A DNA stretch of 64,000 bases. It comes from Christensenella sp. UBA1214. GTDB taxonomy: Bacteria; Bacillota; Clostridia; Christensenellales; CAG-138. Positions 7,251 through 32,091 of the stretch are shown here, piece after piece. Position 1 is the first letter of the stretch. Each line of letters starts with the position of its first letter. Below the pieces are notes generated by a model. It ran no database searches. It saw only the letters and a list, made by a program, of their open reading frames with translations, and had not been told where the DNA came from. The DNA lies in the NCBI GenBank assembly GCA_002309375.1, contig DBXK01000012.1, forward strand, positions 84,009 to 148,008. The letters are read 5' to 3'. Position numbers and translations under genes: made by a program.

Positions 7251-7259
7251 ATTGCTGCT

Positions 7260-13300: not shown

Positions 13301-16300
13301 TGACCACATAGGCGGTACTATTCGCGATATATATAAGCAGGTACTTCTTGCCGGCAGTGGGAGCGGAGACTTCATTGTACTTCTCTCCGGCCCTCATTCC
13401 GCCGGTAACGCCCTTGGAACCGGTGGGGGTCACGTCGGAAACGACCGCGTCATTATAGTCGACCGTGAAGTTCTGGCCGGGGTAGACCCTCTTACCGGAG
13501 GGGGTGCCGTCGGCATTCATGATCTCATAGTAGAGGAAGACGTAGTCGTCGGGGCTGTCGGGTGCGGACGCCGTACGGCCGATAGCGTATGCGCCGTCGG
13601 TATAGGGCAGAGGATCAGTCCACTCCGTAGTGGTGCCCTCATAGTGACCGGGAATGCTGTTGCCGGGAGCCTGGATATATGAGACAGCGTTATAGAGGAT
13701 CGTGATTCCGCTTGCGCCGGGCAGAGAATAGCGCCACTTGGCGTAGAGATGGAGCTGACCGGTTACCCAATAGCGGGGTATATCGGAATTGACCCTGTCG
13801 GAATCGGGATAATCCTTCATACCGTCAGTGTTGTCATACAGCTTGGTGTTGAAGTTGAAGGAGTTCTTCATCTCGGCATCGGTGTACCAGCCCACGAACT
13901 CGTAACCGTCCCTGGTGATCTGGACGTCTTCGCCGTTGGAAATCATATTGCCCTGATCAACACGGAAATCGGGATCCTGTCCCGGAGGAAGAGTGCCGTC
14001 GTTCTCGTGAAGGAATACGCGGTACTGGATGCGCTGCCACTTCGCATAAACGGTGACGCCGCCCTCGGGCATCTTGTTGAAGTTCGCGGCAACGGTACAG
14101 GTCTTGTCAAGGTACCAACCCTCGAACATATAACCGGAATAAGCGGGCTTGAAATAGTTCGCGCCGTTCTTGTTGTAGGAGGTGATATTATCCTCATAGA
14201 GGATATCATTCGATTCACCGAGATAACCGCGGTCGGGACCGTCCGCAATCATGATCTGGTTGCCGTCGAAATAGGAACCGTCCTGATAGAGGATTTTGTA
14301 GGAGTTGCGGGTATAGTACAGCTTGATCGAGTAATCGTACGTCGAAGTCAACTCGACTGTGCCGTCGGTGCCATATGCGGGATAAGCATCACCCTGGGTA
14401 AATCCCGTGATGTCATACATATCCTCGGACTTTGTGGATTGAACACCCGGCTGGCCCTGGATGGTAATCGTCTGGTGAAGAGTATAATTCTTACCGCCGT
14501 AGCTGACTGTATTCGACGTGCCGGGAAGAGCTTCGATATAGTAGTAGAAATTGTAATCGATTTCAACACCGTAGTACAGCATACGGAAAGTTGTGCTTTC
14601 GGCAGGCATGGTCTCAAGTGCGGGGACGTCATGTTCCGAATCGAAGATCGTACTGTTCTGCGGATTCCAGAGAACGCCTTCGGGAGCGCCGTCTATGGGG
14701 AATTCGGAGGAAATATCCTGGCCGTACAGTGCAGTGATAGTATCAGCGGTTTTCCAGGTATTTACAACGTATCTTCTGTTATTGCTTACAGATACATAGT
14801 TACTACCGTTATAGTAATATGCGGTACTTGCAGATGTGCTGCCGTCAAGAGCATAATAGTTCCCATCGCTTCCCATGTAGAACAGCATGTAATAAGTACT
14901 GCTATTGCTGGGCTTGTACCAGTTACCGTAATTGCTACTCTGAGTATAAGTATTAGGTATCTGGAACGTCAGCGTATACTCATTACGGTCAAAGTACACG
15001 TTAACGACCGTGGTGCCCTTGCAGTTGATCGTCTTGCCGGAGGCGTCATTGTGATCATAGTGGAAACCGGTATACGAATAATTGGTGCCGTTGATCCTGA
15101 CGTATGCGGAATTGCCGCTGCCCTGCGGATTGATCGTAGTGATCGCGGAGTCGGAATTGCCGATGAGCTTGATCGACTGAACGAAATCGTAACCGTCGCC
15201 GGCAAGGTTCTGCTGCCAGATCAGAATGGTATACGCAGCGGTGGCGTTCTTGGTCCACTTCGCGTAAGCCGTGGTGTTCGCGCGGATAGTCTGATTGAAG
15301 TTGAACTCGGTGGTGAAGTTCGCATCGGTGTACCAACCGCCGAAGGTGTAACCGGGAAGGGTGGGATCGGCAGGCTTTACAGCGGGAGTGACGACGCCGT
15401 CCTCGCAGAATACGGGAGGATTGTAGGTCGCGCCTTTATGATCATCATCATTATACGGGTTTTCCTCGAAAATGAGCCAACGACCGGCCTGGACCTTTGC
15501 ACGGAAGGTGGTGTCGCCCATGATGGTGATGGTGGTCTTGTTGGGATAGACCGTATCGGTACCTACCATCTGCCAGCCGACGAAACGGTAACCGTCAAGC
15601 TCGGGAGTGTAGCTCTGGTCGATCGTGTACTCCAGGGAGTTTTCCTTGGTGTAAACAGCCTCGGCAAAGCGCGTTACGTCGCCGTTCTCGCTGAGGAAGG
15701 AAACGATGTAGTAATTGAAGAACATTGCATAGACCTTCATTACATCGCCTTCCTGGACGGGGTTCTCGGTATCGGTGAGACGATCCACAACTGCAGCACG
15801 GACGTAGTTGATGGTATGATCGCCGAGAACGTCGTCGGAATCATAATCGGGCTTGCCGATGATCCAACCGCAGAAAACTTTGGTATCGCCTTCAGACTGA
15901 TTAACGGTGGGGTCGGGGATGATGTTGCCGACCAGATCGACGTTCGCAGGAGTGATGTAGGCAGTGTCGATAACCGTCTCGCCGTTATAAAACTTTACGG
16001 TCAGACGGGCACGTTCACCTTCTTCACCATCGCCAATGACTGCATAAACCGAGAAGTCGCTTGCTTCGAAGGTGATGGTCGTTCCGCTGAGGTAGAAATC
16101 TTCGATTACTTCCATCTCGACAGAACCGAGCTCGCTCGCGCTGCCCTTGAAGTGGACGAGCTGGAGATCTTCGAGATCTGCGATCACGTCGTTTTCAAGT
16201 GTGACGGTAACGGGGTTGCGCGGCTCGACTTCGTTCTTGCCCTGATCGAGGAAGTTGATGTCGAGAGCGGCGTAAACATGGCCGCGCTCCGAAGAAGCGG

Positions 16301-16619
16301 CGTCGAATGCAGCCTGGACATTGCTCAAATCGTTGATCAGTGCAACATCGAGAGCGGTATCCGCGGGCAGCGCGCCCTCGGGGGCGTCGACATAGACCGA
16401 TGTTCCGCCATGGGAATCATAGGACATGGTCTGCGCCGGATAGCTGGGCTTCGGATCGGGACGGGGGAAGAAGATATCCCACCAGCGATCGAACCAGCTG
16501 CTGAGCACGGTGGTACCGTTGTCGTCAACGACTCTTGCAAGAGCCGCCTGCGGCAGAACGGAAAGCGCCATGAACAGCACCAGCACAATGGAAAGGATCT
16601 TTGCTAAGCGCGTTTTCAA
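10386..16619 (-). CDS. Giant secreted surface protein (2077 aa) with multiple Listeria-Bacteroides (Flg_new / InlB B-repeat) domains
   Basis: TTG start at 16619, 7 nt after AAGGAGG, giving the signal peptide (M)KTRLAKILSIVLVLFMALSVLPQAALA. There are at least 8 repeats of the G(Y/F)xFxGW type (GYTFGGWYTD, GYMFEGWYLD, GYEFVGWYTD, GYTFIGWSG, GYIFNGWAKD, YTFTGWDT). No LPXTG, SLH or choline-binding anchor was seen. Confidence 0.85.
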   Translation of the reverse strand: MKTRLAKILSIVLVLFMALSVLPQAALARVVDDNGTTVLSSWFDRWWDIFFPRPDPKPSYPAQTMSYDSHGGTSVYVDAPEGALPADTALDVALINDLSNVQAAFDAASSERGHVYAALDINFLDQGKNEVEPRNPVTVTLENDVIADLEDLQLVHFKGSASELGSVEMEVIEDFYLSGTTITFEASDFSVYAVIGDGEEGERARLTVKFYNGETVIDTAYITPANVDLVGNIIPDPTVNQSEGDTKVFCGWIIGKPDYDSDDVLGDHTINYVRAAVVDRLTDTENPVQEGDVMKVYAMFFNYYIVSFLSENGDVTRFAEAVYTKENSLEYTIDQSYTPELDGYRFVGWQMVGTDTVYPNKTTITIMGDTTFRAKVQAGRWLIFEENPYNDDDHKGATYNPPVFCEDGVVTPAVKPADPTLPGYTFGGWYTDANFTTEFNFNQTIRANTTAYAKWTKNATAAYTILIWQQNLAGDGYDFVQSIKLIGNSDSAITTINPQGSGNSAYVRINGTNYSYTGFHYDHNDASGKTINCKGTTVVNVYFDRNEYTLTFQIPNTYTQSSNYGNWYKPSNSSTYYMLFYMGSDGNYYALDGSTSASTAYYYNGSNYVSVSNNRRYVVNTWKTADTITALYGQDISSEFPIDGAPEGVLWNPQNSTIFDSEHDVPALETMPAESTTFRMLYYGVEIDYNFYYYIEALPGTSNTVSYGGKNYTLHQTITIQGQPGVQSTKSEDMYDITGFTQGDAYPAYGTDGTVELTSTYDYSIKLYYTRNSYKILYQDGSYFDGNQIMIADGPDRGYLGESNDILYEDNITSYNKNGANYFKPAYSGYMFEGWYLDKTCTVAANFNKMPEGGVTVYAKWQRIQYRVFLHENDGTLPPGQDPDFRVDQGNMISNGEDVQITRDGYEFVGWYTDAEMKNSFNFNTKLYDNTDGMKDYPDSDRVNSDIPRYWVTGQLHLYAKWRYSLPGASGITILYNAVSYIQAPGNSIPGHYEGTTTEWTDPLPYTDGAYAIGRTASAPDSPDDYVFLYYEIMNADGTPSGKRVYPGQNFTVDYNDAVVSDVTPTGSKGVTGGMRAGEKYNEVSAPTAGKKYLLIYIANSTAYVVTTDYHDSDFGGRQPKISAITVSSNSDGTYSFSSSSYTLTDLLFTAEANGNYWRFKSVNASKGYLANAGGYVVYSGETTSSYTAVTDWTVSNGYFTSATTDSTYKYLYASTTYMDIDCDNSDSQASHFIFAELVENAASYTVTFKDWDGTVLSSEQVAEGGSATPPANPTREGYTFIGWSGNYTNVQQNETVTATYEKDATSGTEVWVPVTTIEPGEEYLIGRISSNGTVYLLMSYNPDASAAYYSGTYYYSYAIAAVRDSEGRVIGVSNDSIISGTMEHVKWVFTEVSGGYTIKGVYNNYLLRTSSSSYPNDLYPSSTTTVSVYNTWAWYNGRLRASIDSQYDRVIGTRINSDNQAVLYFQASTSSGVNLQLYKKEFIANVDTYTVKFYGWEGAELDSQTVEEGSCATAPADPTHTGYIFNGWAKDGDSTTLYTKAQVDAMPITADTTFTAHYTTESGNEVYTVTFVNWNGQILKTEYVEEGSGATAPAVPARENYTFTGWDTYAWENNVTEDLIVTANFQKTVTKQYTVTLRAVYGPKAVLEKTHITWHANNGTGDYKHSVDVLMNENIEIEYPEADPNSTGAKVDDLIWGEDDNLIWTDHVFLGWAKIAISDSATGSQVKPEYDPEDEAYVKERSFNEDDLFLKYVAPSDDSLHGTFYAKFEGEWTPVEYVAADELMPYNGMYAVWADVFYVYHSGTNEVEKIVRTTKAGETFDLANMTSEGYLYGGYYHDYLGKSDDFDAKALTYSAFSGADALNNGKWTNEQTDNGTGAKQYDGTNVTWSIDDAYKTTDEDAETGMAITPDAGTTYYIKEVPARQYLQPYLHYTYHLGYNDITNAWLISDIDDTNYLNTGFMIVDSNKKATVCNSLTVQNSNGGNSIRLTAKKVFRAQGVTGGLLTYREVINVSSGLNLLANGNSVLQFWVTPDGLLVTGNTCRIYNGLQSCDSIGYTLDSNNESLMMITDTFTPAD

Positions 16620-16719
16620 TGTACGTTCCTCCTTATGGTAGTAGATTGAAAAGATTAACGTTTTTATTGGGTCGGCCGCGGTAAGTCCATACCTAGGCAT
16701 ATTAACCCACATATTCATA

Positions 16720-16748
16720 ATAATAGCACAAGTCAATGTTTCTGTCAA
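16720..16748 (-). promoter_or_regulatory. Sigma-A promoter of the giant-protein operon
   Basis: Minus strand TTGACA (16748-16743), 17 nt, TATTAT (16725-16720), preceded by an A8 tract (UP-like). It lies inside the track's N-terminal extension of the ORF. Confidence 0.55.
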
Positions 16749-16987: not shown

Positions 16988-18769
16988 ATGAAGACAATGG
17001 GAGAAAACCGGGCTCTTTTCGGTTCGCTGCATACGCTCCGCGAAAAGCGGCGCGACGGCGGCCTCAGGGAGATCATCGACGACTGGCGCTGGATCTTCAC
17101 TTACACGAAGCGCCACAAATTCGCCGTGCTGTTCTATACCGTGCTCGGCATCCTCAGCACGACGCTCACCCTTGCCGCAAGCGTGGCGGGGAAGTACGTC
17201 ATCGATATCATCACCGGGCACAAGACCTCCGAGCTCGGAGTGCTGATCGCGATCATGCTCGGCAGCGCCGCGGCAAGCCTGCTGTTTTCAAGCCTCATCA
17301 ACAGGCTCTCGGCGAAGATCGGCATACATATTAATAATGATATCCAGGCCGACATCTTCGACAAGATCATCGACGTCGATTGGAAGGCGATCAGCGAATA
17401 CTCGAGCGGCGATCTTCTGAACCGATTCAACAGCGATGTTCAGACCGTCAGTAAAAACGCGATCAGCTGGCTGCCGACGATCATCATCGCATTGTATAAC
17501 TTCATCGTGACCTTCGGCCTGATATGGTATTACAACAAGGTCATGTCACTGCTGGCATTCGCGGCCGCGCCGGTCATGCTGCTGATGAGCAAGTACTTCA
17601 TCCGGAAGCAGCGCGACTACGCGAGGAAGGTCAAGGAGACCGGCAGCAAGATGATGGGCTTCGAGGTCGAGACTTTCTATAATTTCGACACGATCAAGTC
17701 CTTCGGCGTGATGGAGAATTACGGCCGCAAGCTCCGCTCCTGGCAGCAGAAGCTGAAGAATATCAGCCTTGAGTATAATCTCTTCACGATCAAGACGAAC
17801 ATCTTCATGTCCGTGCTCGGGCTGATCGTTCAGTATGCGGCGTTCGGATACTGCCTGTACCTGCTTTGGGGAAAGGAGATCACCTACGGCACGATGACGC
17901 TGTTCCTCGAGCAGCGCGTCCGTCTTTCGTCGGCATTCAACAATGTTGTGGGCATCGTGCCCCAGTTTTTGACGAGCTCGGTCTCCGCACACCGTATCCG
18001 CGAGCTGATCGATTTGCCGAGAGAGAAGCATCTCGAGCAAAGCGAGGAGCTCAAAGCGCTTGCGGACAAAGGCCTTGAAGTGCGCATGGACGGCGTAAGC
18101 TTCTCCTATATTGAGGATAAGCAGGTCATCACCGATTCGTCGTTCCGCGCGGCTCCCGGCGAGATCGTGGCGCTGATCGGTCCTTCGGGCGAAGGAAAGA
18201 CGACGATGATCCGCCTGATGCTCGGCCTCATCCATCCGGACAGCGGTACTGCCCTGATCCGCGCATGCGACGGAACCGAAGTCGAGATGAACGCCGACAG
18301 CCGGTGCATGTTTTCATACGTTCCGCAGGGGAACACGATCCTTTCCGGAACGATCGCGGAGAATATGCGCCTCGTGAAGGAGGATGCTTCGGATGAAGAG
18401 CTCATCGAAGCGCTGAAGATCGCCAGCGCATGGGACTTCGTGTCCAAGATTCCGGACAGCTTCAACAGCAAAGTCGGCGAGCGAGGCAAGGGCTTTTCGG
18501 AAGGCCAGGCGCAGCGCCTTGCAATTGCGAGGGCCGTGCTGCGCGATGCGCCGATACTGCTGCTTGATGAAGCGACCTCCGCTCTTGACGTTGCAACGGA
18601 GCGGCAGGTGCTTCGGAATATCCTGATCCACAGGCCGAACAAGACCTGCATCGTGACGACGCACCGGCCGACCGTGATCAATCTCTGCAAACGTGTTTAC
18701 CGCGTTGAAAACAGAAAGGTCACGGAACTGAACGAAGAAGAGTCAAGCGCCGCGGCGATGGACTTCTGA
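16988..18769 (+). CDS. Type I ABC exporter (fused TMD-NBD, MsbA/PglK-like)
   Basis: 593 aa with six predicted TM helices, then Walker A GPSGEGKTT, an atypical signature FSEGQ, Walker B ILLLDEATSALD and H-loop TTHR. There is no N-terminal C39 peptidase domain. Confidence 0.85.
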   Translation: MKTMGENRALFGSLHTLREKRRDGGLREIIDDWRWIFTYTKRHKFAVLFYTVLGILSTTLTLAASVAGKYVIDIITGHKTSELGVLIAIMLGSAAASLLFSSLINRLSAKIGIHINNDIQADIFDKIIDVDWKAISEYSSGDLLNRFNSDVQTVSKNAISWLPTIIIALYNFIVTFGLIWYYNKVMSLLAFAAAPVMLLMSKYFIRKQRDYARKVKETGSKMMGFEVETFYNFDTIKSFGVMENYGRKLRSWQQKLKNISLEYNLFTIKTNIFMSVLGLIVQYAAFGYCLYLLWGKEITYGTMTLFLEQRVRLSSAFNNVVGIVPQFLTSSVSAHRIRELIDLPREKHLEQSEELKALADKGLEVRMDGVSFSYIEDKQVITDSSFRAAPGEIVALIGPSGEGKTTMIRLMLGLIHPDSGTALIRACDGTEVEMNADSRCMFSYVPQGNTILSGTIAENMRLVKEDASDEELIEALKIASAWDFVSKIPDSFNSKVGERGKGFSEGQAQRLAIARAVLRDAPILLLDEATSALDVATERQVLRNILIHRPNKTCIVTTHRPTVINLCKRVYRVENRKVTELNEEESSAAAMDF

Positions 18770-18783
18770 CGGAAACAATAACG

Positions 18784-19536
18784 ATGATCGATATCCATTC
18801 CCACATCCTGCCGGGCGTTGACGACGGATCGGACAGCATGGAGACTTCGCTCGAAATGCTTTCGATGGCTGCGGAAAGCGGCGTCAAAGTCATTTTCGCA
18901 ACGCCTCATGCAAACAGTCCGGGAGAATTCGAAAACTATTCTTCGGACAGGCTGAGATTCGCCCTTATGGAGCTGCGTCAGGCGGCTGCGGACGAAGGCA
19001 TCCCGCTGAAGATCTGCCGGGGAATGGAACTTTTCGCGACAGATGATCTGCCCGAACTGCTCCGCGACGGGATCGTTTGGACCATGAACGGGACAAAATA
19101 CTTCCTGACGGAGTTCGCGTTCGACGAAGATCCGGATTTCTGTTTCGAAACGATCGAGCGTTCGAGAAACTACGGCTTTCGGCCGATCATAGCTCATCCG
19201 GAACGATACTTCTTCATTCAGGAGGATCCGCAGATCGCCTACGAGCTCTGTATGGCAGGCTCGGCGCTCCAGCTCAATAAGGGCAGCCTTCTCGGACGGT
19301 TCGGTCCCGATGTACAGGAAACGGCAGAGCTTCTGATCGAGCATCGCCTTGCCGCATGTGTTGCGAGCGACGCTCACGGCGTTGAAAGCCGAACTACGGA
19401 TATGTACGAAGTGGCGGAGCTTATCAACAGACGTTGGGGAAGCCGCCTTACAAGGCTCCTGCTCCGCGAAAACCCCGCAAAGATAATCGCAGGCGAACGG
19501 CTGCTCGGCTATGAGCCCATCCCGTTCGAAGACTGA
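18784..19536 (+). CDS. cpsB: PHP-family protein-tyrosine phosphatase (CpsB/YwqE type)
   Basis: MIDIHSHILPGVDDGS...ATPH...AHPERY...SDAH are the CpsB metal-binding motifs. Confidence 0.9.
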   Translation: MIDIHSHILPGVDDGSDSMETSLEMLSMAAESGVKVIFATPHANSPGEFENYSSDRLRFALMELRQAAADEGIPLKICRGMELFATDDLPELLRDGIVWTMNGTKYFLTEFAFDEDPDFCFETIERSRNYGFRPIIAHPERYFFIQEDPQIAYELCMAGSALQLNKGSLLGRFGPDVQETAELLIEHRLAACVASDAHGVESRTTDMYEVAELINRRWGSRLTRLLLRENPAKIIAGERLLGYEPIPFED

Positions 19537-19560: not shown

Positions 19561-20457
19561 ATGAAGAGACTGCGCATATTGATCTTAATATTTTTCTTCG
19601 CGGTAGCCGCATTTTACGGCGCTTACTATCTGATCGATAAACTCACCACCGATAAGATCGCCCCTGTCATAAAAGCCGACAGCGACGCCATCGAGGTCAC
19701 GATCGACGCGACAGAAGCGGATCTGCTTGCCGGGATGTCTGCAACGGATAATGTGGACGGCGACGTTACAGACATGCTCGTTGTGACGTCCAAGAGCAAG
19801 TTTATCCGTAAAGGCACATTGCGCGTCAATTATGCTGCTTTTGATCAAAGCAGGAACGTTAAAACCTATTCACGCGAGGTTACATATACCGATTACGTTT
19901 CCCCGCAATTCAGTCTCAAAGCTCCGCTGCGCTTTGCATCGAGCAGCTCAAATCATGATTATCTAGCAAATATCAAGGCATATGACTGCCTTGACGGTGA
20001 TATCTCGAAAAAAATAAGGATCAGTTACGGCGATACTGTTGCAGTAAGCGATACGGTTACAGAACAAACGATCGATATCATCGTTACCAACAGCTACGGC
20101 GATTCAACGAGCCTTCAGCTCACAGCAAGTCTGGAGGATTTTGCAACATATAACCGTCTGTGCCCGGCTTTATCGGAATACCTCATTTATACAAAGACCG
20201 GAGTGATGCCGGATTTTCGTTCCCTGATCATCGGCGTTTGGGCAAATGGGAAAACTACCGAATTCAGCAGCGGCGATACAAATTTCACCGAACAAAATGT
20301 TTCCGTCTACAATATTCAAAACAGCGGCGCTTACAATACCGACGAGCATGCACTGAATATCAACGTACCCGGTGTTTACTATGTTAAATATTCGCTTGCC
20401 AATGAGCTCGGCGAAGCGCTCGGCACAACGACGCTGATCGTTATAGTGGAGGAATGA
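19561..20457 (+). CDS. Membrane-anchored protein with Ig-like (DUF5011-type) domains
   Basis: N-terminal TM helix (LRILILIFFFAVAAFYGAYYL), then repeats containing ATDNVDGDVTDMLVV and AYDCLDGDISKKIRI. Confidence 0.6.
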   Translation: MKRLRILILIFFFAVAAFYGAYYLIDKLTTDKIAPVIKADSDAIEVTIDATEADLLAGMSATDNVDGDVTDMLVVTSKSKFIRKGTLRVNYAAFDQSRNVKTYSREVTYTDYVSPQFSLKAPLRFASSSSNHDYLANIKAYDCLDGDISKKIRISYGDTVAVSDTVTEQTIDIIVTNSYGDSTSLQLTASLEDFATYNRLCPALSEYLIYTKTGVMPDFRSLIIGVWANGKTTEFSSGDTNFTEQNVSVYNIQNSGAYNTDEHALNINVPGVYYVKYSLANELGEALGTTTLIVIVEE

Positions 20458-20459: not shown

Positions 20460-22031
20460 ATGGAAAACAAGCAAAATACAGACTCATTACTCGACAGACT
20501 GGATCTATACAGCATATTCAGAGACATTATCCGCAACCTGTGGGCAATACTCCTCGGCGTCATTGCCGTTTGCCTGATCGTCAATATGATGAGCAAAGAA
20601 AAGTATGAGAGTACTTATTCGACAACGGCAACATTCATTGTCACTTCGCGTACGGGCGGAAGCTATGCAAACGGCAATCGGACAGCTGCCTCGACAATGG
20701 CGAGCAGTTATTCAAACATCCTCAACAGCAATCTTCTGAAGAAAAAAGTATGCGAAGATCTCGGCGTTTCGAGCTTTAATGCGAAAATGTCTACATCGGT
20801 CGTTAAGGACACTAACCTGATGCAGCTTACGATCACTTCCGACTCGCCGTGGAATACCTATAAAATAACTAGATCCGTTATGGAAAATGTTAAGGAGCTG
20901 ACCGGATACGTATCGAACGATATGGTAATGGAAGTGCTCCAACAGCCTGCCGTACCGTTAAAAGCTGACGGAATGTATTCGTCACGCAGACAAACGAAAA
21001 TTGCTATTGCGATTTCTTGTGCTGCTCTTACACTTGCTTTTATTTATCTTTCTTACCGGAAAAATACAATTAAAAACGAAAACGATATTGCAGATAAGCT
21101 TGAAACGCGTTCACTTGGAGTTCTTTATTATGACGGAAAACACAAGCTCAAGTCGCTTTTCAATTTCGGTAAGAAAAAGAAAAAACAAAAGCTTCTTGTT
21201 TCGGAAGTCACGGCAAGCTTTGAATTCGTTGAAAGAAACAAAAAGATCGCCGCTTTGATAGCGGCTCAGGCTAAGAATATCGGCGCAAAGGTCATTCTCG
21301 TTACAAGCGTTATGGAACACGAGGGCAAATCCACCGTTTCGGCAAACCTTGCTCTCTCGCTCGCTCAGCAGTCGAACGATGTGCTGCTTATAGACGGTGA
21401 TATGCGCCGCCCGACTTTGAATTCGCTGTTCCTTGATAAGGACGAAGGCAGCGACGAGACGAGCCTTGCAAAACTCCTGATGGGTGAGACCAGCATGAAA
21501 AGGGCAATGCGGTATGATGAGAAACGCGGCGTCTACCTGCTGCTAAATTATAAGAACTATCCCAATTCGACCGATATCGTTTCAAAGGATACGACAGCTC
21601 AGCTTATCGACGCCGCAAGGAACACCTTCGATTACATCATAATCGATACTCCGCCTATGTCGCTGATGGCGGATGCGGAAGTCCTTGCCGGCCTTGCGGA
21701 TATGAGTATCCTGGTCGTCAGCTATGATTTGGTATATGCTCAGGACCTGAACGATGCGATCGATTCGCTGAAGGACTGCCGGGCGCAGTTCGCGGGCTGC
21801 ATCCTCAACCAGGTCCGCACGCTGCCCGGAGAACGGAGGACCGTTGTGGGCCAGGGCGGTTACGGCAGATACGGTCACTACGGCCGGTATGGGCGCTACG
21901 GCAGATACGGCAAATACAGCAATTATGGGCGTTACGGCAATTACGGCAGATACGGAGCCTACGGATACTACGGTCACTATGCTGAACAGCCTGCAGAACA
22001 GACCGAGGAAGCGGAGAATCCGGAGGAGTGA
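20460..22031 (+). CDS. Fused Wzz-like transmembrane activator plus BY-kinase (Wzc-like), paralog 1, with an extended GRYG tyrosine tail
   Basis: Wzz N-terminus with 2 TM helices. The kinase core has Walker A VTSVMEHEGKST (atypical), A' LLIDGDMRRP and B IIIDTPP. The C-terminus is GGYGRYGHYGRYGRYGRYGKYSNYGRYGNYGRYGAYGYYGHY (15 Tyr). Confidence 0.85.
   Translation: MENKQNTDSLLDRLDLYSIFRDIIRNLWAILLGVIAVCLIVNMMSKEKYESTYSTTATFIVTSRTGGSYANGNRTAASTMASSYSNILNSNLLKKKVCEDLGVSSFNAKMSTSVVKDTNLMQLTITSDSPWNTYKITRSVMENVKELTGYVSNDMVMEVLQQPAVPLKADGMYSSRRQTKIAIAISCAALTLAFIYLSYRKNTIKNENDIADKLETRSLGVLYYDGKHKLKSLFNFGKKKKKQKLLVSEVTASFEFVERNKKIAALIAAQAKNIGAKVILVTSVMEHEGKSTVSANLALSLAQQSNDVLLIDGDMRRPTLNSLFLDKDEGSDETSLAKLLMGETSMKRAMRYDEKRGVYLLLNYKNYPNSTDIVSKDTTAQLIDAARNTFDYIIIDTPPMSLMADAEVLAGLADMSILVVSYDLVYAQDLNDAIDSLKDCRAQFAGCILNQVRTLPGERRTVVGQGGYGRYGHYGRYGRYGRYGKYSNYGRYGNYGRYGAYGYYGHYAEQPAEQTEEAENPEE
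21855..21980 (+). repeat. Imperfect 12-nt (GRYG codon) tandem repeat tract encoding the Tyr tail of kinase 1
   Basis: Reiterated TACGGCAGATACGG / TACGGCAATTACGG units are visible directly in the DNA. Confidence 0.8.
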
Positions 22032-22040
22032 TAAACGCAT

Positions 22041-23588
22041 ATGAGTGAAACTGCGGCAAATACGAATCATAATACTCAAAGGGATAACTTCAGCTCTCTT
22101 GCAAAAGATTTCCTCTTCAGCTTTAAGCGGCTTTGGTGGTTGGTCGTTCTTTTGACAGCATTCTTTGCGTTCATACTGTATTACAGAAAAAGCGTCAATT
22201 ATGTACCGCAGTATGTGCTTGAGAGGACATACGCTGTTGAGCTTGTAAACGGCGGTTCTTATGCCAACCGGAACACCGCCGAGCAGATGAGTAAAATATT
22301 CCCGTCCATTACGAAAAGCGGTGCGCTTTCCGATATCATTTCCGATGAGCTCGGAACAAACGGCGTCCCCGGAACAGTGAGCGTCAGCTGTATCAGCGGT
22401 ACGAATCTGCTGACGATAAGCGTCACTGCTTACGGGCCCGGCGTAGCTGCTCAGGTGATGGATTCCGTTGTCAAGAATTATCCGGATGTTGCACAATATG
22501 TTGTCGGCCAGACAAAGCTAATCGATGTCGATGTCAACGGAACCGCTTCGGTCATCGGCAAAACGAGCGTTACACGCGGATCGCTGCGTACCGGCGCACT
22601 GATCGGATTTGCGCTCGGCATGCTGATCGTTATTATCCGTTCGGTCGCATTCAGAACGATCCGCAGCGAGAGCGAACTCCATTCGGTGCTCAATCTATCT
22701 TGCCTCGGCACACTGCCCGCATGCCGCAGCCGCAGTAAAAGCAAGAATGAACGCAGCGAGATCAATATTCTCTTTGACAATAATCGAAGCAGCTATATCG
22801 AATCGATGCGCTTGATCCGCACAAGGCTCGAAAGGCAGCTTCAAGGGAAAAAAGTCCTGATGGTCACAAGCTCTGTTGCCGGCGAAGGCAAATCGACAGT
22901 AGCCGCCAACCTTGCGATATCCATGGCGCTCAAGGGCAAGCGCGTGATCCTTGTCGACTGCGACCTCAGAAATCCGACAGTCGGGAAGATATTCAACCTG
23001 AATGAAACGTATCCCGGCCTTGCTTCGGTGATCAACGGAAAAACAAGGCTTGAAGATGCGCTCGTTAAGATCGAAAGCGAAAAGCTGACGAACGGCATAA
23101 CGCTGCTTCCGGGTTCCGATAAAAAATCCCGTTTTGTCGAGATCCTGAGCAGTGACGAGATGGGCCGTGTTATCGAAGCCATGCGCACGAAGGCAGACGT
23201 TATAATACTTGACACACCGCCTTCGGCAGTGCTTGTCGATGCAATGATGCTTGTCAAGCATGTTGACGCGATCGCATATGTCATCATGAGCGATTACGCA
23301 CGCCGCCGCAGTATAATCGACGGTGTTGAAGAGCTTTCCGCAGGCGGCGTCCCGATTGCCGGCTGCATACTGAACGGCGGAAGAACCCACTCCGGCAAAT
23401 ACGGCGGCTACTACGGCAAATACGGACGCTATGGATACGGCCGTTACGGTTACGGCCGGTATGGCTACGGTTACGGTCACTATGGCGGATATGGCTACGG
23501 CAGCAACGGCGGTTATGAATCGGCGTCGAATTCCTCTTCGGAGCACAGAAGCAGCCGGTCGAAGAGAAAGCATTCATCCGGCAAATGA
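22041..23588 (+). CDS. Fused Wzz-like transmembrane activator plus BY-kinase (Wzc-like), paralog 2, with a Tyr/Gly tail and a Ser-rich basic extension
   Basis: Canonical Walker A VTSSVAGEGKST, A' VILVDCDLRNP and B VIILDTPP. The tail is GKYGGYYGKYGRYGYGRYGYGRYGYGYGHYGGYGYG (15 Tyr including a following GGY), followed by SNSSSEHRSSRSKRKHSSGK. Confidence 0.85.
   Translation: MSETAANTNHNTQRDNFSSLAKDFLFSFKRLWWLVVLLTAFFAFILYYRKSVNYVPQYVLERTYAVELVNGGSYANRNTAEQMSKIFPSITKSGALSDIISDELGTNGVPGTVSVSCISGTNLLTISVTAYGPGVAAQVMDSVVKNYPDVAQYVVGQTKLIDVDVNGTASVIGKTSVTRGSLRTGALIGFALGMLIVIIRSVAFRTIRSESELHSVLNLSCLGTLPACRSRSKSKNERSEINILFDNNRSSYIESMRLIRTRLERQLQGKKVLMVTSSVAGEGKSTVAANLAISMALKGKRVILVDCDLRNPTVGKIFNLNETYPGLASVINGKTRLEDALVKIESEKLTNGITLLPGSDKKSRFVEILSSDEMGRVIEAMRTKADVIILDTPPSAVLVDAMMLVKHVDAIAYVIMSDYARRRSIIDGVEELSAGGVPIAGCILNGGRTHSGKYGGYYGKYGRYGYGRYGYGRYGYGYGHYGGYGYGSNGGYESASNSSSEHRSSRSKRKHSSGK
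23394..23516 (+). repeat. Imperfect GYG/GRYG codon repeat tract encoding the Tyr tail of kinase 2
   Basis: Reiterated TACGGCCGTTACGGTTACGGCCGGTATGGCTACGG units. Confidence 0.8.
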
Positions 23589-23658: not shown

Positions 23659-24336
23659 ATGAGCGAAAAAAAGACGGACAAACAAAAAAGACCCGCATCG
23701 ATGGGCTTTTATAACCGTGTAGTCAAACGGACGGCCGATCTGCTGATCTCCCTGATCGCTCTTATCATTCTAAGCCCGACCATCCTTATTGCGGCGATCC
23801 TTGTGAAGCTGACCTCAAAAGGTCCGGTGATATTCAAACAGAAGCGCATCGGCAGAGGAGCACGGGAGTTCACGATCTATAAATTCAGGACGATGTATGT
23901 GAACAGCGAACACACCGGTTCGGGCGTTTACAGCGACGATAACGATCCGCGCATGACCAAGGTCGGGAAACTCCTGAGAAAGACTTCCATCGACGAGCTC
24001 CCTCAGCTTGTGAACATCCTGAAAGGCGATATGTCGCTGATCGGGCCGCGTCCGCCGCTGACGTATCATCCCTGGCCTGTATCGGAGTATTCCGAAGAGC
24101 AGCTCCGCATGTTTGAAGTCCGTCCCGGCATCACCGGCTGGGCGCAGACACATGGCCGGAAGGATGTTGAATGGAATAAACGTATCAAGCTGAATATCTG
24201 GTATGTGGATCATGTTTCCTTCATGCTGGATCTTCGAATATTTTTCATTACGATCGGCAAGGTTTTTACCAATGCCGACAACGAGAATAAAGGCGCGACT
24301 GTCACGGAAGAAGAAAAGGACGAGGCCGAAGCCTGA
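23659..24336 (+). CDS. Initiating undecaprenyl-phosphate sugar-phosphate transferase (small monotopic PGT, PF02397)
   Basis: One TM/re-entrant helix, then KGPVIFKQKRIGRGAREFTIYKFRTM...DELPQLVNILKGDMSLIGPRP. Confidence 0.9.
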   Translation: MSEKKTDKQKRPASMGFYNRVVKRTADLLISLIALIILSPTILIAAILVKLTSKGPVIFKQKRIGRGAREFTIYKFRTMYVNSEHTGSGVYSDDNDPRMTKVGKLLRKTSIDELPQLVNILKGDMSLIGPRPPLTYHPWPVSEYSEEQLRMFEVRPGITGWAQTHGRKDVEWNKRIKLNIWYVDHVSFMLDLRIFFITIGKVFTNADNENKGATVTEEEKDEAEA

Positions 24337-24357: not shown

Positions 24358-25188
24358 ATGCTTAAACTGATGTTTATCACAAATAACCCGAAAACTGCAA
24401 TGAGCGCTGAAGCAGCGGGGGTAGACCGCATCTTTGTTGACATGGAGTACATCGGCAAGGACGAGCGGCAGAAAGGCCTGAATACGGTGATGTCTCACCA
24501 TACGATCGAGGACGTTGCCGCTGTAAGGAAGGCTGTCAAAAAGGCTGAGCTGCTGGTCCGGGTGAACCCGATCCATGAAGCGACTTCCGACTATACGTCT
24601 TCGGAGGAAGAGATAAACGCCGCGATCGAAGCCGGCGCGGATATCGTGATGCTGCCGTATTTCAAAACCATCGATGAAGTCCGGCGCTTCATCGGGATCG
24701 TGAATGGCAGAGCGAAAGCTATGCTCCTTCTCGAAACTGAATCGGCGATGCAAAACGTGGACAGGATCCTTGAAATCGAGGGCATCGACGAGATCCATAT
24801 CGGCCTCAACGATTTGAGCATCGATCTCGGGAAAAAGTTTATGTTCGAGCTTCTTGCCGACGGCACCGTTGAGAAGCTCTGCCTTAAATTCCGCAAAAAG
24901 GGCATCCCGTACGGTTTCGGCGGCATTGCTTCGATCGGCAACGGCGCCGTTCCCGCCGAATACATTATCAAGGAGCATTACCGCCTCGGTTCGCGCGCGG
25001 CGATCCTTTCGAGAAGCTTCTGCAATACCGCCATGATAACCGACGAGGATATAATCAAGAGGGCTCTGCGCAAGGGCGTTGCGGAGATCCGCGAGCTTGA
25101 GGGTGAATGCGAAAAGCACAGCCGTTTCTTCTTTGAAAACGAGAGGAAGTTTATCTACCTTGTGGATCGGATCAGCAGGGGAGAATAA
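24358..25188 (+). CDS. HpcH/HpaI aldolase / citrate-lyase-beta superfamily protein embedded in the glycan locus
   Basis: 276 aa, TIM-barrel-like. AEAAGVDRIFVDMEYIGK...GADIVMLPYFKT...LLLETESAMQNVDRILEIEGIDEIHIGLNDLS matches the HpcH family pattern. Confidence 0.7.
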   Translation: MLKLMFITNNPKTAMSAEAAGVDRIFVDMEYIGKDERQKGLNTVMSHHTIEDVAAVRKAVKKAELLVRVNPIHEATSDYTSSEEEINAAIEAGADIVMLPYFKTIDEVRRFIGIVNGRAKAMLLLETESAMQNVDRILEIEGIDEIHIGLNDLSIDLGKKFMFELLADGTVEKLCLKFRKKGIPYGFGGIASIGNGAVPAEYIIKEHYRLGSRAAILSRSFCNTAMITDEDIIKRALRKGVAEIRELEGECEKHSRFFFENERKFIYLVDRISRGE

Positions 25189-25190
25189 TT

Positions 25191-26111
25191 ATGAACCTTC
25201 TGATCACAGGCGCATGGCAGGGCGCGAAAGAGCATCTGCCGGAAATCGAAGCTCTCGGCCACTCCGTTGTTTTCATGCAAATGGAGAAGGATGAGCTTCC
25301 CTGTGATCCGAAATGGGTCGAAGGCGTTGTCTGCAACGGCCTTTTCCTGCATCACCCGATCTCCGTATTCCCGAACCTTAGGTTCATCCAGCTCACCAGC
25401 GCCGGTTACGATCGTGTGGACATGGATTACGTCCGTGCCCACAGCATAGAGATCAAAAACGCAAGAGGCGTTTACAGCATCCCAATGGCGGAATTTGCAG
25501 TTTCCGGCGTGCTGCAGCTTTATAAACAAGCGCGGTTCTTTTATGATAACCAGAAGACGCACAGATGGGAGAAGCATCGCGGACTGATGGAACTGCACGG
25601 CAAAACAGTCGTGATCGTCGGCTGCGGAAGCGTCGGAACGGAGTGCGCAAAGCGCTTCGGCGCTTTCGGCTGCAGGATCGTCGGCATTGATATCATCCAA
25701 AGAGCTGACGAGGCATATGAACGCATCCTGCCGCTCGAAAAGCTCGACGAGCTGCTGCCTTCTGCGGATATCCTGGTTCTGACCGTCCCGCTCACGCAGC
25801 AGACCGAAAACCTGATCGACCGCCGTCGGCTCGGGCTGCTGCCGGCAAGAGCTGTCGTCGTCAATATCGCCCGCGGAAAGATCGCCGATGAAACCGCGAT
25901 CGCCGATCTCCTCACGGAGGGTCGACTTGCCGGCGCGGTAATCGACGTTTTCGGGAACGAACCGCTTCCGGCGGATTCGCCCCTGTGGGATGCACCCAAC
26001 CTGATCGCAACCCCGCATAACAGCTTTGTCGGGGAAGGGAATGCACATCGATTGAATATGTGCATTATTAAAACGGTTGTTGAGGGAGATTGTTGCAATG
26101 ATAGGCATTAA
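25191..26111 (+). CDS. D-isomer-specific 2-hydroxyacid dehydrogenase (NAD-binding)
   Basis: GKTVVIVGCGSVGTECAKR (Rossmann fold), VVVNIARG, ATPHNS. The last ~20 codons fall inside the low-GC island sequence. Confidence 0.85.
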   Translation: MNLLITGAWQGAKEHLPEIEALGHSVVFMQMEKDELPCDPKWVEGVVCNGLFLHHPISVFPNLRFIQLTSAGYDRVDMDYVRAHSIEIKNARGVYSIPMAEFAVSGVLQLYKQARFFYDNQKTHRWEKHRGLMELHGKTVVIVGCGSVGTECAKRFGAFGCRIVGIDIIQRADEAYERILPLEKLDELLPSADILVLTVPLTQQTENLIDRRRLGLLPARAVVVNIARGKIADETAIADLLTEGRLAGAVIDVFGNEPLPADSPLWDAPNLIATPHNSFVGEGNAHRLNMCIIKTVVEGDCCNDRH

Positions 26112-27183
26112 AGGAATCATATCAGGTTCTATTAATAGGATAAGCGAGAATCATTTGCGAAATGTTCATAGCAGAATGGCTTTAGCGAGCTTGAATGAAC
26201 ACGGGAAACAATGCCGTCTGACAAAAGAAGAGAATGATGCCATTAGTTGCCTTTGGAAGCAAATCGGTTATAGAGACAGAAATGAATGGCATCGCCTTTA
26301 TAAAGCCGTGAACAGTTTTGACGCACGATATGTACCGAATGACGTCTACGGCTTAGAACTTTTGCCGAGACTGAATTCAACGAAACTATTGGCTGCATGG
26401 GATGATAAAGCTTATTACCAAAGATTCTTTCCCTATATAAGGCAACCTTCCACTGTTGCATTTGTCATTGACGGTGCTTTTTATGATAAAAAGTATTCTG
26501 CTGTAGATGTTAGTTCTGTATCTATGATGCTTATAGACAGCTACGACAGGGTTATTATAAAACCATCTTACGGATTGGAAGGACGAGGAGTAGAGCTCGT
26601 TGAGACTAAAGAACATGACTGTTCTTCTTTAAAAGAAAAACTCTTATCATATGGAAGGAACTATGTTGTTCAGGAAGTCATCAGGCAGCATAAATCATTA
26701 GCTGTTTATAATAATAGTTCTGTTAATCCGATTCGAATAATGACATTAAGAATGAATGGTGTTATCCACTACCTTCATTCGACACTTCGGTTTGGTATTC
26801 CAGGTTCAAATACTGATATAAGTTTTATCGGCAAAAAAGAAATTGCAAGAGTTTGTGCAGTAAGCAATCAAGGAGATGTATCGAAGGTTTGGTTTGATAC
26901 AGATGGGAAAAAGCATTCAATATCGGACTTGAGGGTTTATGAACAAGAAAGGATTCCCGGATTTGGGAAAATAATTGATATAGCGACATCCGTACACGAA
27001 GGCCTTCAACATTTTGACTTAGTAGGTTGCGATTTCACGATTGACCAACATGAGGAGCCAATACTGATTGAATACAATGTATTCTGGCCCGGTATTATTT
27101 TCCCTCAGTACTGCCATGGTCCTCTGTTCGGCGAATTAACAGATGAATTAATCTCATACCTTGAGAATAAGCCAAAGAAATGA
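26098..27183 (+). CDS. Sugar-transfer-associated ATP-grasp family protein (1)
   Basis: Start at 26098 behind GAGGGAG. IIKPSYGLEGRGVELV...YVVQEVIRQH...CDFTIDQHEEPILIEYN is an ATP-grasp core pattern. GC is about 35-38%. Confidence 0.65.
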   Translation: MIGIKGIISGSINRISENHLRNVHSRMALASLNEHGKQCRLTKEENDAISCLWKQIGYRDRNEWHRLYKAVNSFDARYVPNDVYGLELLPRLNSTKLLAAWDDKAYYQRFFPYIRQPSTVAFVIDGAFYDKKYSAVDVSSVSMMLIDSYDRVIIKPSYGLEGRGVELVETKEHDCSSLKEKLLSYGRNYVVQEVIRQHKSLAVYNNSSVNPIRIMTLRMNGVIHYLHSTLRFGIPGSNTDISFIGKKEIARVCAVSNQGDVSKVWFDTDGKKHSISDLRVYEQERIPGFGKIIDIATSVHEGLQHFDLVGCDFTIDQHEEPILIEYNVFWPGIIFPQYCHGPLFGELTDELISYLENKPKK

Positions 27184-27212
27184 TTTAGATGTGACTTCGG
27201 GAGAACGAGAGA

Positions 27213-28193
27213 ATGCAACTTTCTGATATTACAAAAATCAAAGGTTATTATGATGATTTAATCAAAGCAGGAGACGGTTTGCTTCTGGAAAAGCATATCG
27301 GCGCTCAAGCTTTCACAATTAAGGCAATTATCAGTTTCGTAGTCTACGGAACCAGCTTTTCAGAGTTTGCCGGTTACGGATTCTATGGTAAAAAACGTAA
27401 AGAAAAAAGAAACTATATGACCAGACGGCATATGTTTCGTTTTTTTGATAAATACAACCCTGTGGAGTTCAGAAACAGAATTGGCGACAAATCACTGGCA
27501 GCACAGTATTATTCTGATTTCATGAAAAGGGAACAGTATGTGAAGAATGAAGGCTATGAAAAGTTCATTGAATTTTCATCACGCTATCGAGAGTTGTTTA
27601 TAAAAAAAGCAGTTGGATGGGGTGGCGAAGGCGCAAGAATTGAGAAAATTGAGTGCGCTGATGATGCCAGACATGTTTGGGAGACTCTCACTGACGAGGT
27701 TGTTGTTGAACCTGTGATTAAGAATCATGACGCCTTAAAAGAAGTGTACCCTGAATCTCTGAACACTATTAAACTAACGGTACTGCAAACAAAGAGTCAA
27801 CCGGTTGTTGTAACCGCGATTATTCGCTTCGGTAATAACACAATAGTTGACAATGTACATTCCGGAGGAATGGCTGCAGGCATCAATGTTGGATCAGGAC
27901 TTATTGAAACACCGGCAACGGATAAGCATTTTACAGAGTATAAGAATCATCCGATAACCAACAAAGCCATTTTGGGTATGACAATTCCGAAGTGGAACGA
28001 AATCAAAGAGCTTGCTATAGACGCTTCAAGAGTAACCCCTCAATTGCGTTATACTTCATGGGACATTGCTTTGACAAACGAAGGCCCTGTAATGATTGAA
28101 GGAAACTGGGACGCAGAGTTTTATATGGAACAAAGGCTGTATAACAGGGGACATAGAAAACTGTTTACAGGTATTCTGGAAGGAAGAGTATGA
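27213..28193 (+). CDS. Sugar-transfer-associated ATP-grasp family protein (2)
   Basis: FIKKAVGWGGEGARIEKI...VVEPVIKNH...DNVHSGGMAAGINVGSG...SWDIALTNEGPVMIEGNWDAEF matches the ATPgrasp_ST-like pattern. Confidence 0.7.
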   Translation: MQLSDITKIKGYYDDLIKAGDGLLLEKHIGAQAFTIKAIISFVVYGTSFSEFAGYGFYGKKRKEKRNYMTRRHMFRFFDKYNPVEFRNRIGDKSLAAQYYSDFMKREQYVKNEGYEKFIEFSSRYRELFIKKAVGWGGEGARIEKIECADDARHVWETLTDEVVVEPVIKNHDALKEVYPESLNTIKLTVLQTKSQPVVVTAIIRFGNNTIVDNVHSGGMAAGINVGSGLIETPATDKHFTEYKNHPITNKAILGMTIPKWNEIKELAIDASRVTPQLRYTSWDIALTNEGPVMIEGNWDAEFYMEQRLYNRGHRKLFTGILEGRV

Positions 28194-30975: not shown

Positions 30976-32091
30976 ATGAAGGTTGGCATACTGACACACT
31001 ATAACGTGTACAATATGGGCGCTCAGCTGCAGATGATGTCTCTTGAAGCGTACCTAAAAGAGCTTGGGCATGAAGTCTCAATACTCACTTATGAAAAGAA
31101 TTTCGACTTTTTAGAGGGCGAAAAGGATCGCAACAGCGCATCATGGAAAGCGCTGCCGTTCTACATTAAGCACTATCTTTTTGAAAAAGGCCCCGGTCTT
31201 ACGTTGTTTAACTACCGCAAGGTTAAGGCGATCAATCGTTCATTAGCATCACATAGTTTTGCGCCTTTTGACAAAAGCGGATGCGATGCTGTCATAATCG
31301 GCAGCGACGAAGTGTTCAGCATAGACGTTGGTCTTAACAAAATGATGTTTGGTTATGGCCTTGGCGGCGTCCCGGCTATAGCGTATGCTCCGGCATTCGG
31401 AAGGACCACTGAAGACATTCTCAAAGAGCATGATTGTTGGCAGCTTGTCAGCGATGGACTGAAAAGCATGTTTATGCTATCAGCCCGGGATTCACATACC
31501 CGCGATATGATAAAAAACATGGCAGGACGAGATGTGCCGCTTGTATGTGATCCTGTACTGTTGTATAATGGAAGTGCTTTCGAAGGCACGGTCAAGCCGA
31601 TAGGCAAGCCCTATTTGCTCGTGTATTCATATGATTCGAATATGACCGATAAGGACGAGATACGAGCTATCCGCTCTTATGCCGAGAAACACCACATGAT
31701 TACAGTCTCGGCCGGGACTTACCATTCCTGGTGTGACAGGAACATCGTTTGCGGTCCCGTGGAATGGTATCGGTATTTCAAAGAGGCGGAATGTGTGGTG
31801 ACAGACACATTCCACGGCAGCGTTGTCGCAATGAAAAACCACTGCAATACCGCTGTATTCATCCGTAAGAGCATCAATGCTTTTAAGCTTGAGTCATTGC
31901 TTGATGTGACAGGAATGAACGAACGGCGGTTGAGTGCAATTACAGAACAAGAGCTTGAACGAGTCTTGTCTGATTCAATTGATTATACTGAAACAGACAG
32001 ACGAATTCGTGAACTTGCCGCTCGAAGCGCCGCTTACCTTACGGATGCCTTGGAACGTTTAAAAAATGGAGAATGCAACAAAGAAAACTGA
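30976..32091 (+). CDS. Polysaccharide pyruvyl transferase family protein
   Basis: MKVGILTHYNVYNMGAQLQMMSL...VVTDTFHGSVVAM matches the PF04230 pattern. Confidence 0.8.
   Translation: MKVGILTHYNVYNMGAQLQMMSLEAYLKELGHEVSILTYEKNFDFLEGEKDRNSASWKALPFYIKHYLFEKGPGLTLFNYRKVKAINRSLASHSFAPFDKSGCDAVIIGSDEVFSIDVGLNKMMFGYGLGGVPAIAYAPAFGRTTEDILKEHDCWQLVSDGLKSMFMLSARDSHTRDMIKNMAGRDVPLVCDPVLLYNGSAFEGTVKPIGKPYLLVYSYDSNMTDKDEIRAIRSYAEKHHMITVSAGTYHSWCDRNIVCGPVEWYRYFKEAECVVTDTFHGSVVAMKNHCNTAVFIRKSINAFKLESLLDVTGMNERRLSAITEQELERVLSDSIDYTETDRRIRELAARSAAYLTDALERLKNGECNKEN

Follow-up and report, generated by a model that had tools for sequence, protein, structure and literature searches.

Why would a Gram-positive capsule locus carry two consecutive genes that each encode a membrane-spanning tyrosine kinase in a single chain? 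The question is raised by a 64,000-nucleotide stretch of Christensenella sp. UBA1214 DNA (assembly GCA_002309375.1, contig DBXK01000012.1, positions 84,009 to 148,008), referred to here as the window. Two of its genes, P1 (20454..22031, + strand, 525 aa) and P2 (22041..23588, + strand, 515 aa), each join a CpsC-like polysaccharide co-polymerase (PCP) domain to a tyrosine kinase of the bacterial type (BY-kinase), which is of a variant type in P1 and canonical in P2. Published work holds that such kinases are fused to their transmembrane partner in Gram-negative bacteria (PCP-2a) and split from it in Gram-positive bacteria (PCP-2b). The split CD type accounts for 98.7% of Firmicutes BY-kinases in Shi 2014 (PMC4007543), BYKdb draws the same dichotomy, and a 2025 review repeats it for the two PCP-2 classes (PMC12220298). 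A preliminary description of the window saw P1 and P2 as contradicting this rule and as an unusual arrangement. They do contradict the rule, but they are not unusual: paired fused kinases are a normal, widely conserved arrangement in gut and rumen Clostridia. Judging from their sequences, the two copies, though diverged, most likely act jointly as a single regulator of how the capsule is made.

P1 and P2 resemble natural fusions of CpsC and CpsD

Both reading frames are intact and lie on the forward strand, separated by 9 nt. Public gene calls put the start of P1 at 20454, where ATGA overlaps the stop codon of the upstream gene (Ig298, below), and we number P1 residues in this 525-aa frame. 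A GGAGG abuts that ATG and lies 7 nt 5′ of a second one at 20460. Given this Shine-Dalgarno spacing and the consensus N terminus of the P1 family, MENKQ, P1 probably starts at 20460 rather than at 20454. In each protein, hydrophobic segments occur twice, at about residues 25-49 and 181-205, ahead of the BY-kinase domain. As first described, then, these are two consecutive genes with transmembrane (TM) domain and kinase in one open reading frame (ORF), as in PCP-2a proteins. Pfam reports a Wzz match (PF02706) in P1. The predicted ectodomain between the TM helices is about 130 aa long and is modeled by AlphaFold as a small alpha/beta domain. The two proteins are 28% identical over their full length. 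A protein identical to P2 (P0121) occurs on two public contigs, in the Logan assemblies of runs SRR5324828 and SRR094926.

The preliminary description equated this layout with proteobacterial Wzc, and that did not hold up. Both proteins pass the curated BY-kinase model TIGR01007 (P1, 137.2 bits; P2, 137.8 bits; cutoff, 108.05). The Wzc/Etk equivalog models match the kinase region only, at 78-90 bits against cutoffs of 1068 (NF008568) and 1248 (NF007350). These scores and the short ectodomain rule out membership in the Wzc family. Wzc is about 720 aa long, and it engages the outer-membrane channel Wza through a periplasmic domain of about 400 aa. P1 and P2 are like E. coli Wzc and Etk (PCP-2a) in having TM domain and kinase in a single polypeptide, and Etk lacks the P-loop Gly as P1 does. 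They are unlike them in their ectodomain, in failing the equivalog models by about 1000 bits, and in having no outer-membrane polysaccharide export (OPX) partner: none of the 46 window ORFs run through Pfam matched the OPX/Wza family.

The resemblance is instead to Gram-positive proteins. The CpsC family model TIGR01006 aligns with P1 over profile positions 2-221 of 226 (E = 1.5e-9; 37.7 bits against a cutoff of 296) and more weakly with P2 (8.4e-5). Among solved structures, the best sequence match is an engineered CapA1-CapB1 chimera (E = 1.8e-23), and the predicted kinase core superposes on CapA1B1 with TMt 0.91 and a root-mean-square deviation of 2.3 Å. Wzc heads the Foldseek list obtained with the full-length model (E = 2e-22, TM ~0.5) because it is the only full-length PCP-kinase structure solved. 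A PHP-type CpsB phosphatase adjoins the pair, as had been noted (18784..19536, + strand; PF19567 CpsB_CapC, 4.9e-60), and both proteins bear a (YGX)n tail, which is the PCP-2b pattern; in the literature, CpsD is said to have a "(YGX)4 repeat domain." The kinase as a separate protein, also typical of PCP-2b, is missing, since both P1 and P2 are fused. Taken together, P1 and P2 would be natural translational fusions of CpsC and CpsD with an expanded CpsD-style (YGX)n tail.

Comparison with known systems places them more closely. The S. pneumoniae CpsB/CpsC/CpsD system (PCP-2b) has the same short-ectodomain, two-TM co-polymerase, a P-loop BY-kinase with Walker A, A′, and B motifs, a (YGX)n tail ((YGX)4 in CpsD), an adjacent PHP-type CpsB, and a Wzy-type capsule locus. 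CpsD, like P1, lacks the conserved EX2RX2R ring contacts. In S. pneumoniae, however, CpsC and CpsD are separate and the CpsD tail has 3-4 tyrosines, whereas P1 and P2 are fused, occur as two diverged tandem copies, and have 15 each. At the head of the window locus we saw no LCP (CpsA) gene; an Ig-like membrane protein and an ABC exporter stand there instead. S. aureus CapA/CapB (2VED, 3BFV, 4JLV) provides the best kinase-domain match in both sequence and structure. Its engineered CapA-Ct::CapB chimera mirrors the fusion found here in nature, and its octameric ring with trans-phosphorylation is the mechanistic template for P1 and P2. S. aureus also has a second paralogous pair, in which one kinase, CapB1, is inactive. 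Its pairs are split, lie at two separate loci, and have kinases that are 57% identical, with 4 tail tyrosines in CapB; P1 and P2 are fused, adjacent, only 28% identical, and co-inherited across families. The BY-kinases of B. subtilis have short tyrosine clusters and, unlike P1 and P2, split genes at different loci with no conserved heterotypic tandem. The likeness there lies in a Firmicute with two BY-kinase/modulator pairs, TkmA/PtkA and EpsA/EpsB, and cross-talk between kinases and modulators (PMC4205851, PMC5035731).

Fusion and long tyrosine tails are family traits

The tail of P1 occupies residues 468-509 (21855..21980, + strand) and is predicted to be disordered; residues 470-509, GYGRYGHYGRYGRYGRYGKYSNYGRYGNYGRYGAYGYYGHY, are in effect (YGX)13. 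Its 42 residues include 6 Arg, 1 Lys, 2 His, and 15 Tyr. An acidic 16-aa end follows (21981-22028, + strand), AEQPAEQTEEAENPEE, with a net charge of -7. AlphaFold gives residues 456-525 a pLDDT of about 26, consistent with disorder. In P2, the tail covers residues 451-492 (23391..23516, + strand), with YG and YGX units intermixed over residues 454-492. It is followed by the basic Ser/Lys/Arg-rich C-terminal extension already reported, ESASNSSSEHRSSRSKRKHSSGK (23517..23585, + strand; net charge, +4). The initial count of 15 tyrosines per tail is exact for both proteins, each of which thus has the C-terminal tyrosine cluster of a BY-kinase. The DNA encoding the tails consists of imperfect 9-, 15-, and 21-bp repeats with 68-86% matches, and because of this imperfection the repeats appear to be old rather than fresh products of slippage.

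How common are such proteins? More than 2,400 homologs were found for each of P1 and P2 among 8,000 scored candidates. The best 120 homologs of each paralog are all 475-609 aa long and thus fused, most with about 55-67% identity; those with names are called "polysaccharide biosynthesis tyrosine autokinase" and come from Oscillospiraceae, Clostridia, or Clostridiales metagenome-assembled genomes (MAGs). HMMER, run exhaustively against 1.84 billion representatives at 50% identity, returned 720 clusters at E ≤ 1e-30, and 139 of the 150 best representatives are full-length, fused proteins of 440-560 aa.

We counted tail tyrosines in the best 45-aa tail window. The median is 10 in the P1 family (range, 7-16), 11 in the P2 family (range, 5-18), and 8.5 among the 50%-identity representatives (maximum, 19). 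In the loci that we fetched, split kinases have a median of 7, short fused ones 9, and Wzc-like ones 6. The tails had been called unusually long, and this is true in part: 15 tyrosines is a high value, yet it lies within the family range, and split CpsD-type Clostridial kinases reach 11-17. The C-terminal extension of the P2 family has a median length of 25 aa, is net positive in 87% of members, and consists of 25% Lys and 21% Ser.

Long tyrosine tails, the P1 Walker A, and the basic Ser/Lys extension of P2 are family traits. Their conservation across hundreds of orthologs indicates that they have been selected and did not arise by chance. The preliminary description had itself named commonness in the clade as the observation that would speak against an unusual arrangement, and fused, long-tailed, duplicated kinases are indeed commonplace there. 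P1 and P2 are very probably an ordinary member of a widespread, conserved Clostridial module of paired fused BY-kinases. The rule of split Gram-positive and fused Gram-negative kinases is thus broken by Clostridia of gut and rumen that form a very large and unstudied group.

The two genes are conserved as an ordered pair

We scanned one genome per species of the Genome Taxonomy Database with two peptide patterns, a procedure that shows breadth, not frequency, and classified every kinase ORF in the fetched loci, each taken with a 6-kb flank. A P1-like gene is directly followed by a P2-like gene, in the same order, in at least 20 loci (L003-L008, L010-L021, L024, and L027), and also in L009. These species-level pair loci, at least 21 in all, belong to rumen and gut Oscillospiraceae, Lachnospiraceae, Blautia schinkii DSM 10518, Mediterraneibacter, Vescimonas, and Ca. 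Merdibacter. The nearest species-level relatives among the matches listed are 59-65% identical and come from rumen or gut Oscillospiraceae, Ruminococcaceae, or Clostridia MAGs. The gaps between the two genes range from -128 to +34 nt, often with 4-nt overlaps, and such short or overlapping junctions suggest co-translation.

A neighbor-joining tree of kinase domains (30 bootstraps) puts the first and second genes of the pairs into two near-clean clades, with moderate bootstrap support; the only exception is the pair of L020. Together, the two clades stand apart from split CD-type and Wzc-type kinases. This topology suggests that a gene that was already fused was duplicated once, long ago. One could still suppose that one copy is a recent or unexpressed duplicate with no distinct role, as the tandem arrangement, the shared domain order, and the similar tails would allow. 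But the two proteins have diverged to 28% identity, both frames are open, and for each there are hundreds of orthologs, about 60% identical, with motifs conserved within its own group. The junctions that suggest co-translation argue in the same direction. Conservation effectively refutes the idea of a decaying duplicate, which we regard as extremely improbable. An artefact of recent duplication or slippage was likewise rejected, given the low identity and the imperfect DNA repeats.

The pair does not travel alone. The gene for Ig298 lies directly upstream of the P1-like gene in all 20 related loci. A CpsB homolog flanks the pair in 14 of the 20, where it lies upstream in the closest relatives from the Oscillospiraceae and, in several Lachnospiraceae, downstream of P2, and a homolog of the MsbA-related ABC exporter adjoins it in 15. 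The first genes downstream of the pair in the window encode a priming transferase and an HpcH protein; only 3 of the 20 loci have homologs of these within the fetched 6 kb.

These data bear on the earlier suggestion of two regulators for two polymers, by which P1 and P2 would be independent homo-oligomeric PCP/BY-kinases, each assigned to a different downstream polymer. Two types of pathway are indeed encoded in the window. A Wzy-type set at 23.6-45 kb comprises a priming transferase (Bac_transf), GT2 and GT4 glycosyltransferases, a pyruvyl transferase, an EpsG-family polymerase, LicD, and Caps_synth; an ABC-2/TagF-type set follows at 45.8-52.7 kb, and there are dTDP-rhamnose genes too. Both P1 and P2 have complete motifs and tails, and the two BY-kinase pairs of B. 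subtilis and S. aureus have partly separate roles. Those pairs, however, are at separate loci, whereas the Clostridial pair is strictly adjacent and ordered in at least 21 genomes, as a fixed module with Ig298, CpsB, and the ABC exporter, and the first downstream genes seldom accompany it. Moreover, ABC-transporter/TagF-type pathways go with PCP-3 proteins, not with PCP-2 tyrosine kinases (PMC12220298). Relatives in which kinase and tail are divided between the members of a pair, and others in which P1- and P2-type halves form a single chain (both described below), also speak against independence. Since the linkage of the pair is fixed elsewhere and PCP-2 kinases belong to Wzy-type pathways, we consider one kinase per polymer unlikely.

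A full-text literature search of a limited collection turned up no account of BY-kinases in Clostridia that are fused or paired. The conserved heterotypic pair appears to be undescribed, as do its Ig-like and ABC partners.

Catalytic and interface motifs differ between the paralogs

The Walker A of P1 had been called atypical (VMEHEGKST), and it is. Its sequence, SVMEHEGKST (21306..21335, + strand; residues 285-294), has Glu at -3 and His at -2 in place of Pro/Ala and Gly; that of P2, SSVAGEGKST (22869..22898, + strand; residues 277-286), is canonical. All three motifs are present at the right spacing in both proteins: EHEGKST (Walker A), LLIDGDMRRP (Walker A′), and YIIIDTPP (Walker B) in P1 and AGEGKST, ILVDCDLRNP, and VIILDTPP in P2. 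P1 deviates only upstream of the G-K-S-T core.

This deviation is itself conserved. E-H-E is found in the P-loop of 120/120 close members of the P1 family, and Gly at -2 in 120/120 close members of the P2 family. Among the P1-like representatives of the 50% clusters, 120/145 have Glu at -3 and 119/145 have Asn or His at -2. We then compared the motifs in 51 sequences per group. Four residues are 100% conserved in both: Lys of Walker A, the Asp pair of Walker A′, and Asp of Walker B. P1 sequences have Glu at -3 in 100% and His, Asn, or Ala, never Gly, at -2; P2 sequences have Gly at -2 in 90%. A second difference lies in the helix-alpha2 motif EX2RX2R, which is canonical in the P2 group (E94-x-x-R90-x-x-R88, where the numbers give % conservation) and degenerate in the P1 group (E-x-x-K/R-x-x-A, with Ala in third place in 76%). 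P1 of the window has E-x-x-K-x-x-A. Two diverged fused copies are thus kept together, and the motifs of this fixed pair are asymmetric in both active site and interface.

Is P1 still a kinase? It had been proposed to be a weak kinase or a pseudokinase that serves mainly as a substrate. In the strict form of this proposal, the altered P-loop would support neither ATP binding nor phosphotransfer, and P1 would be scaffold and substrate for P2 only. The P1 group does lack Gly at -2, has acidic Glu at both -3 and -1, and carries a degenerate EX2RX2R; some relatives have lost the Walker A Lys and kept their tails; and S. aureus CapB1 sets a precedent for an inactive paralog. Yet P1 of the window retains K292, S293/T294, D314, D316, R318, and D398, residues that are 94-100% conserved across its group, with K292, D314, D316, and D398 at 100%, so that no catalytic residue has been lost, and in this respect it is conserved as well as P2. 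The P-loop His of P1 aligns with Gly in CapB and VpsO and with Asp in Etk. Etk is an active kinase. On this alignment, the missing Gly would not disqualify P1 as a kinase. P1 also evolves no faster than P2: the kinase domains of P1-like proteins have a mean identity of 0.466 to the window ortholog, and those of P2-like proteins one of 0.460 (Wilcoxon p = 0.28). This equal rate and the fully conserved catalytic residues also rule out P1 as a decaying gene. Furthermore, L022 has a lone fused kinase (5854-7344) with an E-D-E-G-K-T-T P-loop and a (YG)n tail, next to an ABC exporter and without a P2-type partner. Of the earlier proposal, the degenerate interface motif and the Lys-less, tailed relatives remain in its favor, but a true pseudokinase in the window is improbable.

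Some relatives carry the asymmetry further. In L009 (pair at 2299-6019), the P1-like protein (765 aa) has Arg in place of the Walker A Lys (GEGRTT), about 17 tail tyrosines, and some 250 aa of low-complexity extension; the P-loop of its P2-like partner is canonical, and this partner lacks a tyrosine tail. A residue other than Lys occupies this position in 6/145 P1-like representative clusters (three K-to-R, two K-to-T, and one fragment), and 5 of these 6 keep 12-15 tyrosines. In three clusters (P0288, P0298, and P0308), proteins of about 923 aa combine a P1-like half and, after it, a P2-like half in one chain with two complete PCP-plus-kinase units, a Rosetta-stone-type hint of joint function. 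Another protein, P0272 (942 aa), has the same two-unit layout, with a P1-like first half that is K-to-R and tail-bearing and a P2-like second half that is canonical.

A candidate heteromeric kinase unit

From the architecture, motifs, conservation, pairing, and asymmetry observed in P1 and P2, we infer heteromer formation, a direction of phosphorylation, and an effect on polymer synthesis by analogy with known systems. In the CapAB/Wzc model, unphosphorylated kinases form an octameric ring in which the tail of one subunit sits in the active site of its neighbor; phosphorylation dissociates the ring, and a phosphatase resets it (PMC2422856, PMC12220298). The CapAB ring interface includes the helix-alpha2 EX2RX2R motif (E23/R26/R29), and these residues appear to sit in the subunit whose active site receives the neighbor's tail (PMC2422856).

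We lean, if only slightly, toward a single heteromeric PCP/BY-kinase unit made up of P1 and P2, in which P2 is the main kinase; the best reading of P1 within that unit is as mainly a phospho-acceptor reset by CpsB. Each subunit would contribute two TM helices with a short domain outside the cell, then a juxtamembrane segment that serves as activator, a P-loop BY-kinase, and a (YGX)n tail. If the octamers of CapAB and Wzc are a guide, the unphosphorylated kinase domains may assemble as a mixed ring under the membrane, in which the tail of one subunit would enter the active site of the next. Because it has the canonical P-loop and alpha2 interface motif, P2 would be the efficient enzyme, acting on the P1 tail. 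P1, with its E-H-E-G-K-S-T P-loop and E-x-x-K-x-x-A motif, would be a weaker or differently regulated kinase acting on the tail of P2, and its own 15-tyrosine tail would be a major acceptor. Multisite phosphorylation could turn the cationic, aromatic Arg/Lys/Tyr/Gly tails strongly anionic and open the ring, a plausible charge switch. CpsB (18784..19536) would reset the cycle, which would pace the Wzy-type polymerization of the polymer made by the downstream genes. The L009 pair may be the extreme form of this division into P2 enzyme and P1 acceptor.

Several points weigh against such a unit. The interaction of P1 with P2, their kinase activity, and the phosphorylation of their tails are deduced from sequence and analogy. 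Both window proteins have full catalytic motifs and full tails, and so may form two separate homo-oligomers. The lone kinase of L022 implies that the E-x-E P-loop variant can probably work without a P2 partner, and the fusions of about 923 aa carry no tyrosine tails. Bootstrap support for the B clade of the neighbor-joining tree is only moderate. As for direction, the inference assumes consistent coloring across two figure panels of the CapB paper (PMC2422856). The change in the P1 interface may also matter little, since CapB autophosphorylation in vitro was not abolished when the alpha2 interface residues were replaced by Ala, and these residues are missing from pneumococcal CpsD as well (PMC2422856).

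If P1 and P2 do form a heteromer, the roles of enzyme and substrate, which are inseparable in homo-octameric Wzc or CapAB, would be separated, and the pair would offer a natural setting in which to ask how cycles of phosphorylation control the length of the polymer. A more far-reaching proposal is that Clostridia use an obligate heteromeric BY-kinase ring in which the P2 type directionally phosphorylates the long Arg/Gly/Tyr-tailed P1 type. The tail would be a high-capacity charge switch, possibly acting through multivalent, condensate-like tail-tail or tail-membrane contacts, and the unit would be linked to a stalk protein, extracellular and Ig-like, and to an exporter of the MsbA-like type, which replace the classical Wzx/CpsA. 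Taken as a joint whole, this is tentative, and we doubt that all of its parts will prove right together.

Neighboring genes

Two uncharacterized, co-conserved partners are flagged by the pair in the capsule loci of these abundant commensals: a membrane protein with three Ig domains and an MsbA-like exporter. In the first, Ig298 (19561..20457, + strand, 298 aa), three Ig/cadherin-like domains follow a TM helix at the N terminus (AF2 pLDDT 87.7). Its 803 homologs are all annotated as "hypothetical" or DUF5011, and the fold search returned generic Ig/cadherin matches only and no functional lead. Ig298 is likely an extracellular component of the same machine as P1 and P2. The second, a type I ABC exporter of 593 aa (16988..18769, + strand), has ABC_membrane and ABC_tran domains. 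It matches TIGR02204 MsbA_rel (4.6e-77) and, more weakly, glucan, HepA, and PglK exporters, all below their cutoffs. Because no MOP/Wzx flippase was found across the 23.6-58 kb polysaccharide region, one may speculate that this exporter flips or exports lipid-linked units in the manner of PglK.

The variable biosynthetic region starts with the priming polyprenyl-phosphate sugar-phosphate transferase (23659..24336, + strand), which matches PF02397 (3.3e-68) and TIGR03025 (7.2e-82, just below its cutoff). Directly after it, at 24358-29740 on the + strand, lie genes for an HpcH/HpaI aldolase-like protein, a D-2-hydroxyacid dehydrogenase, two "sugar-transfer associated" ATP-grasp proteins, and a 516-aa protein with faint similarity to asparagine synthase. 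A pyruvyl transferase and an FrhB-like Fe-S protein are encoded at 30976-33286. This unusual modification block, together with the latter two genes, hints at a polymer decorated with amino acids or organic acids. Farther downstream, a single 481-aa ORF (56026-57471, + strand) fuses RmlD (dTDP-4-dehydrorhamnose reductase) to RmlC (3,5-epimerase) and adjoins rmlA and rmlB.

The GC content is 0.39-0.50 over 26001-54000, compared with 0.51-0.56 in the flanks and about 0.47-0.55 in the kinase cassette. This drop suggests that the glycosyltransferase-rich variable part has been exchanged horizontally and that the regulatory cassette is core. Just upstream of the cassette, on the - strand, a 2,120-aa ORF (10386-16748), for which the annotation of an identical contig lists Flg_new-type repeats, probably encodes a giant cell-surface repeat protein.

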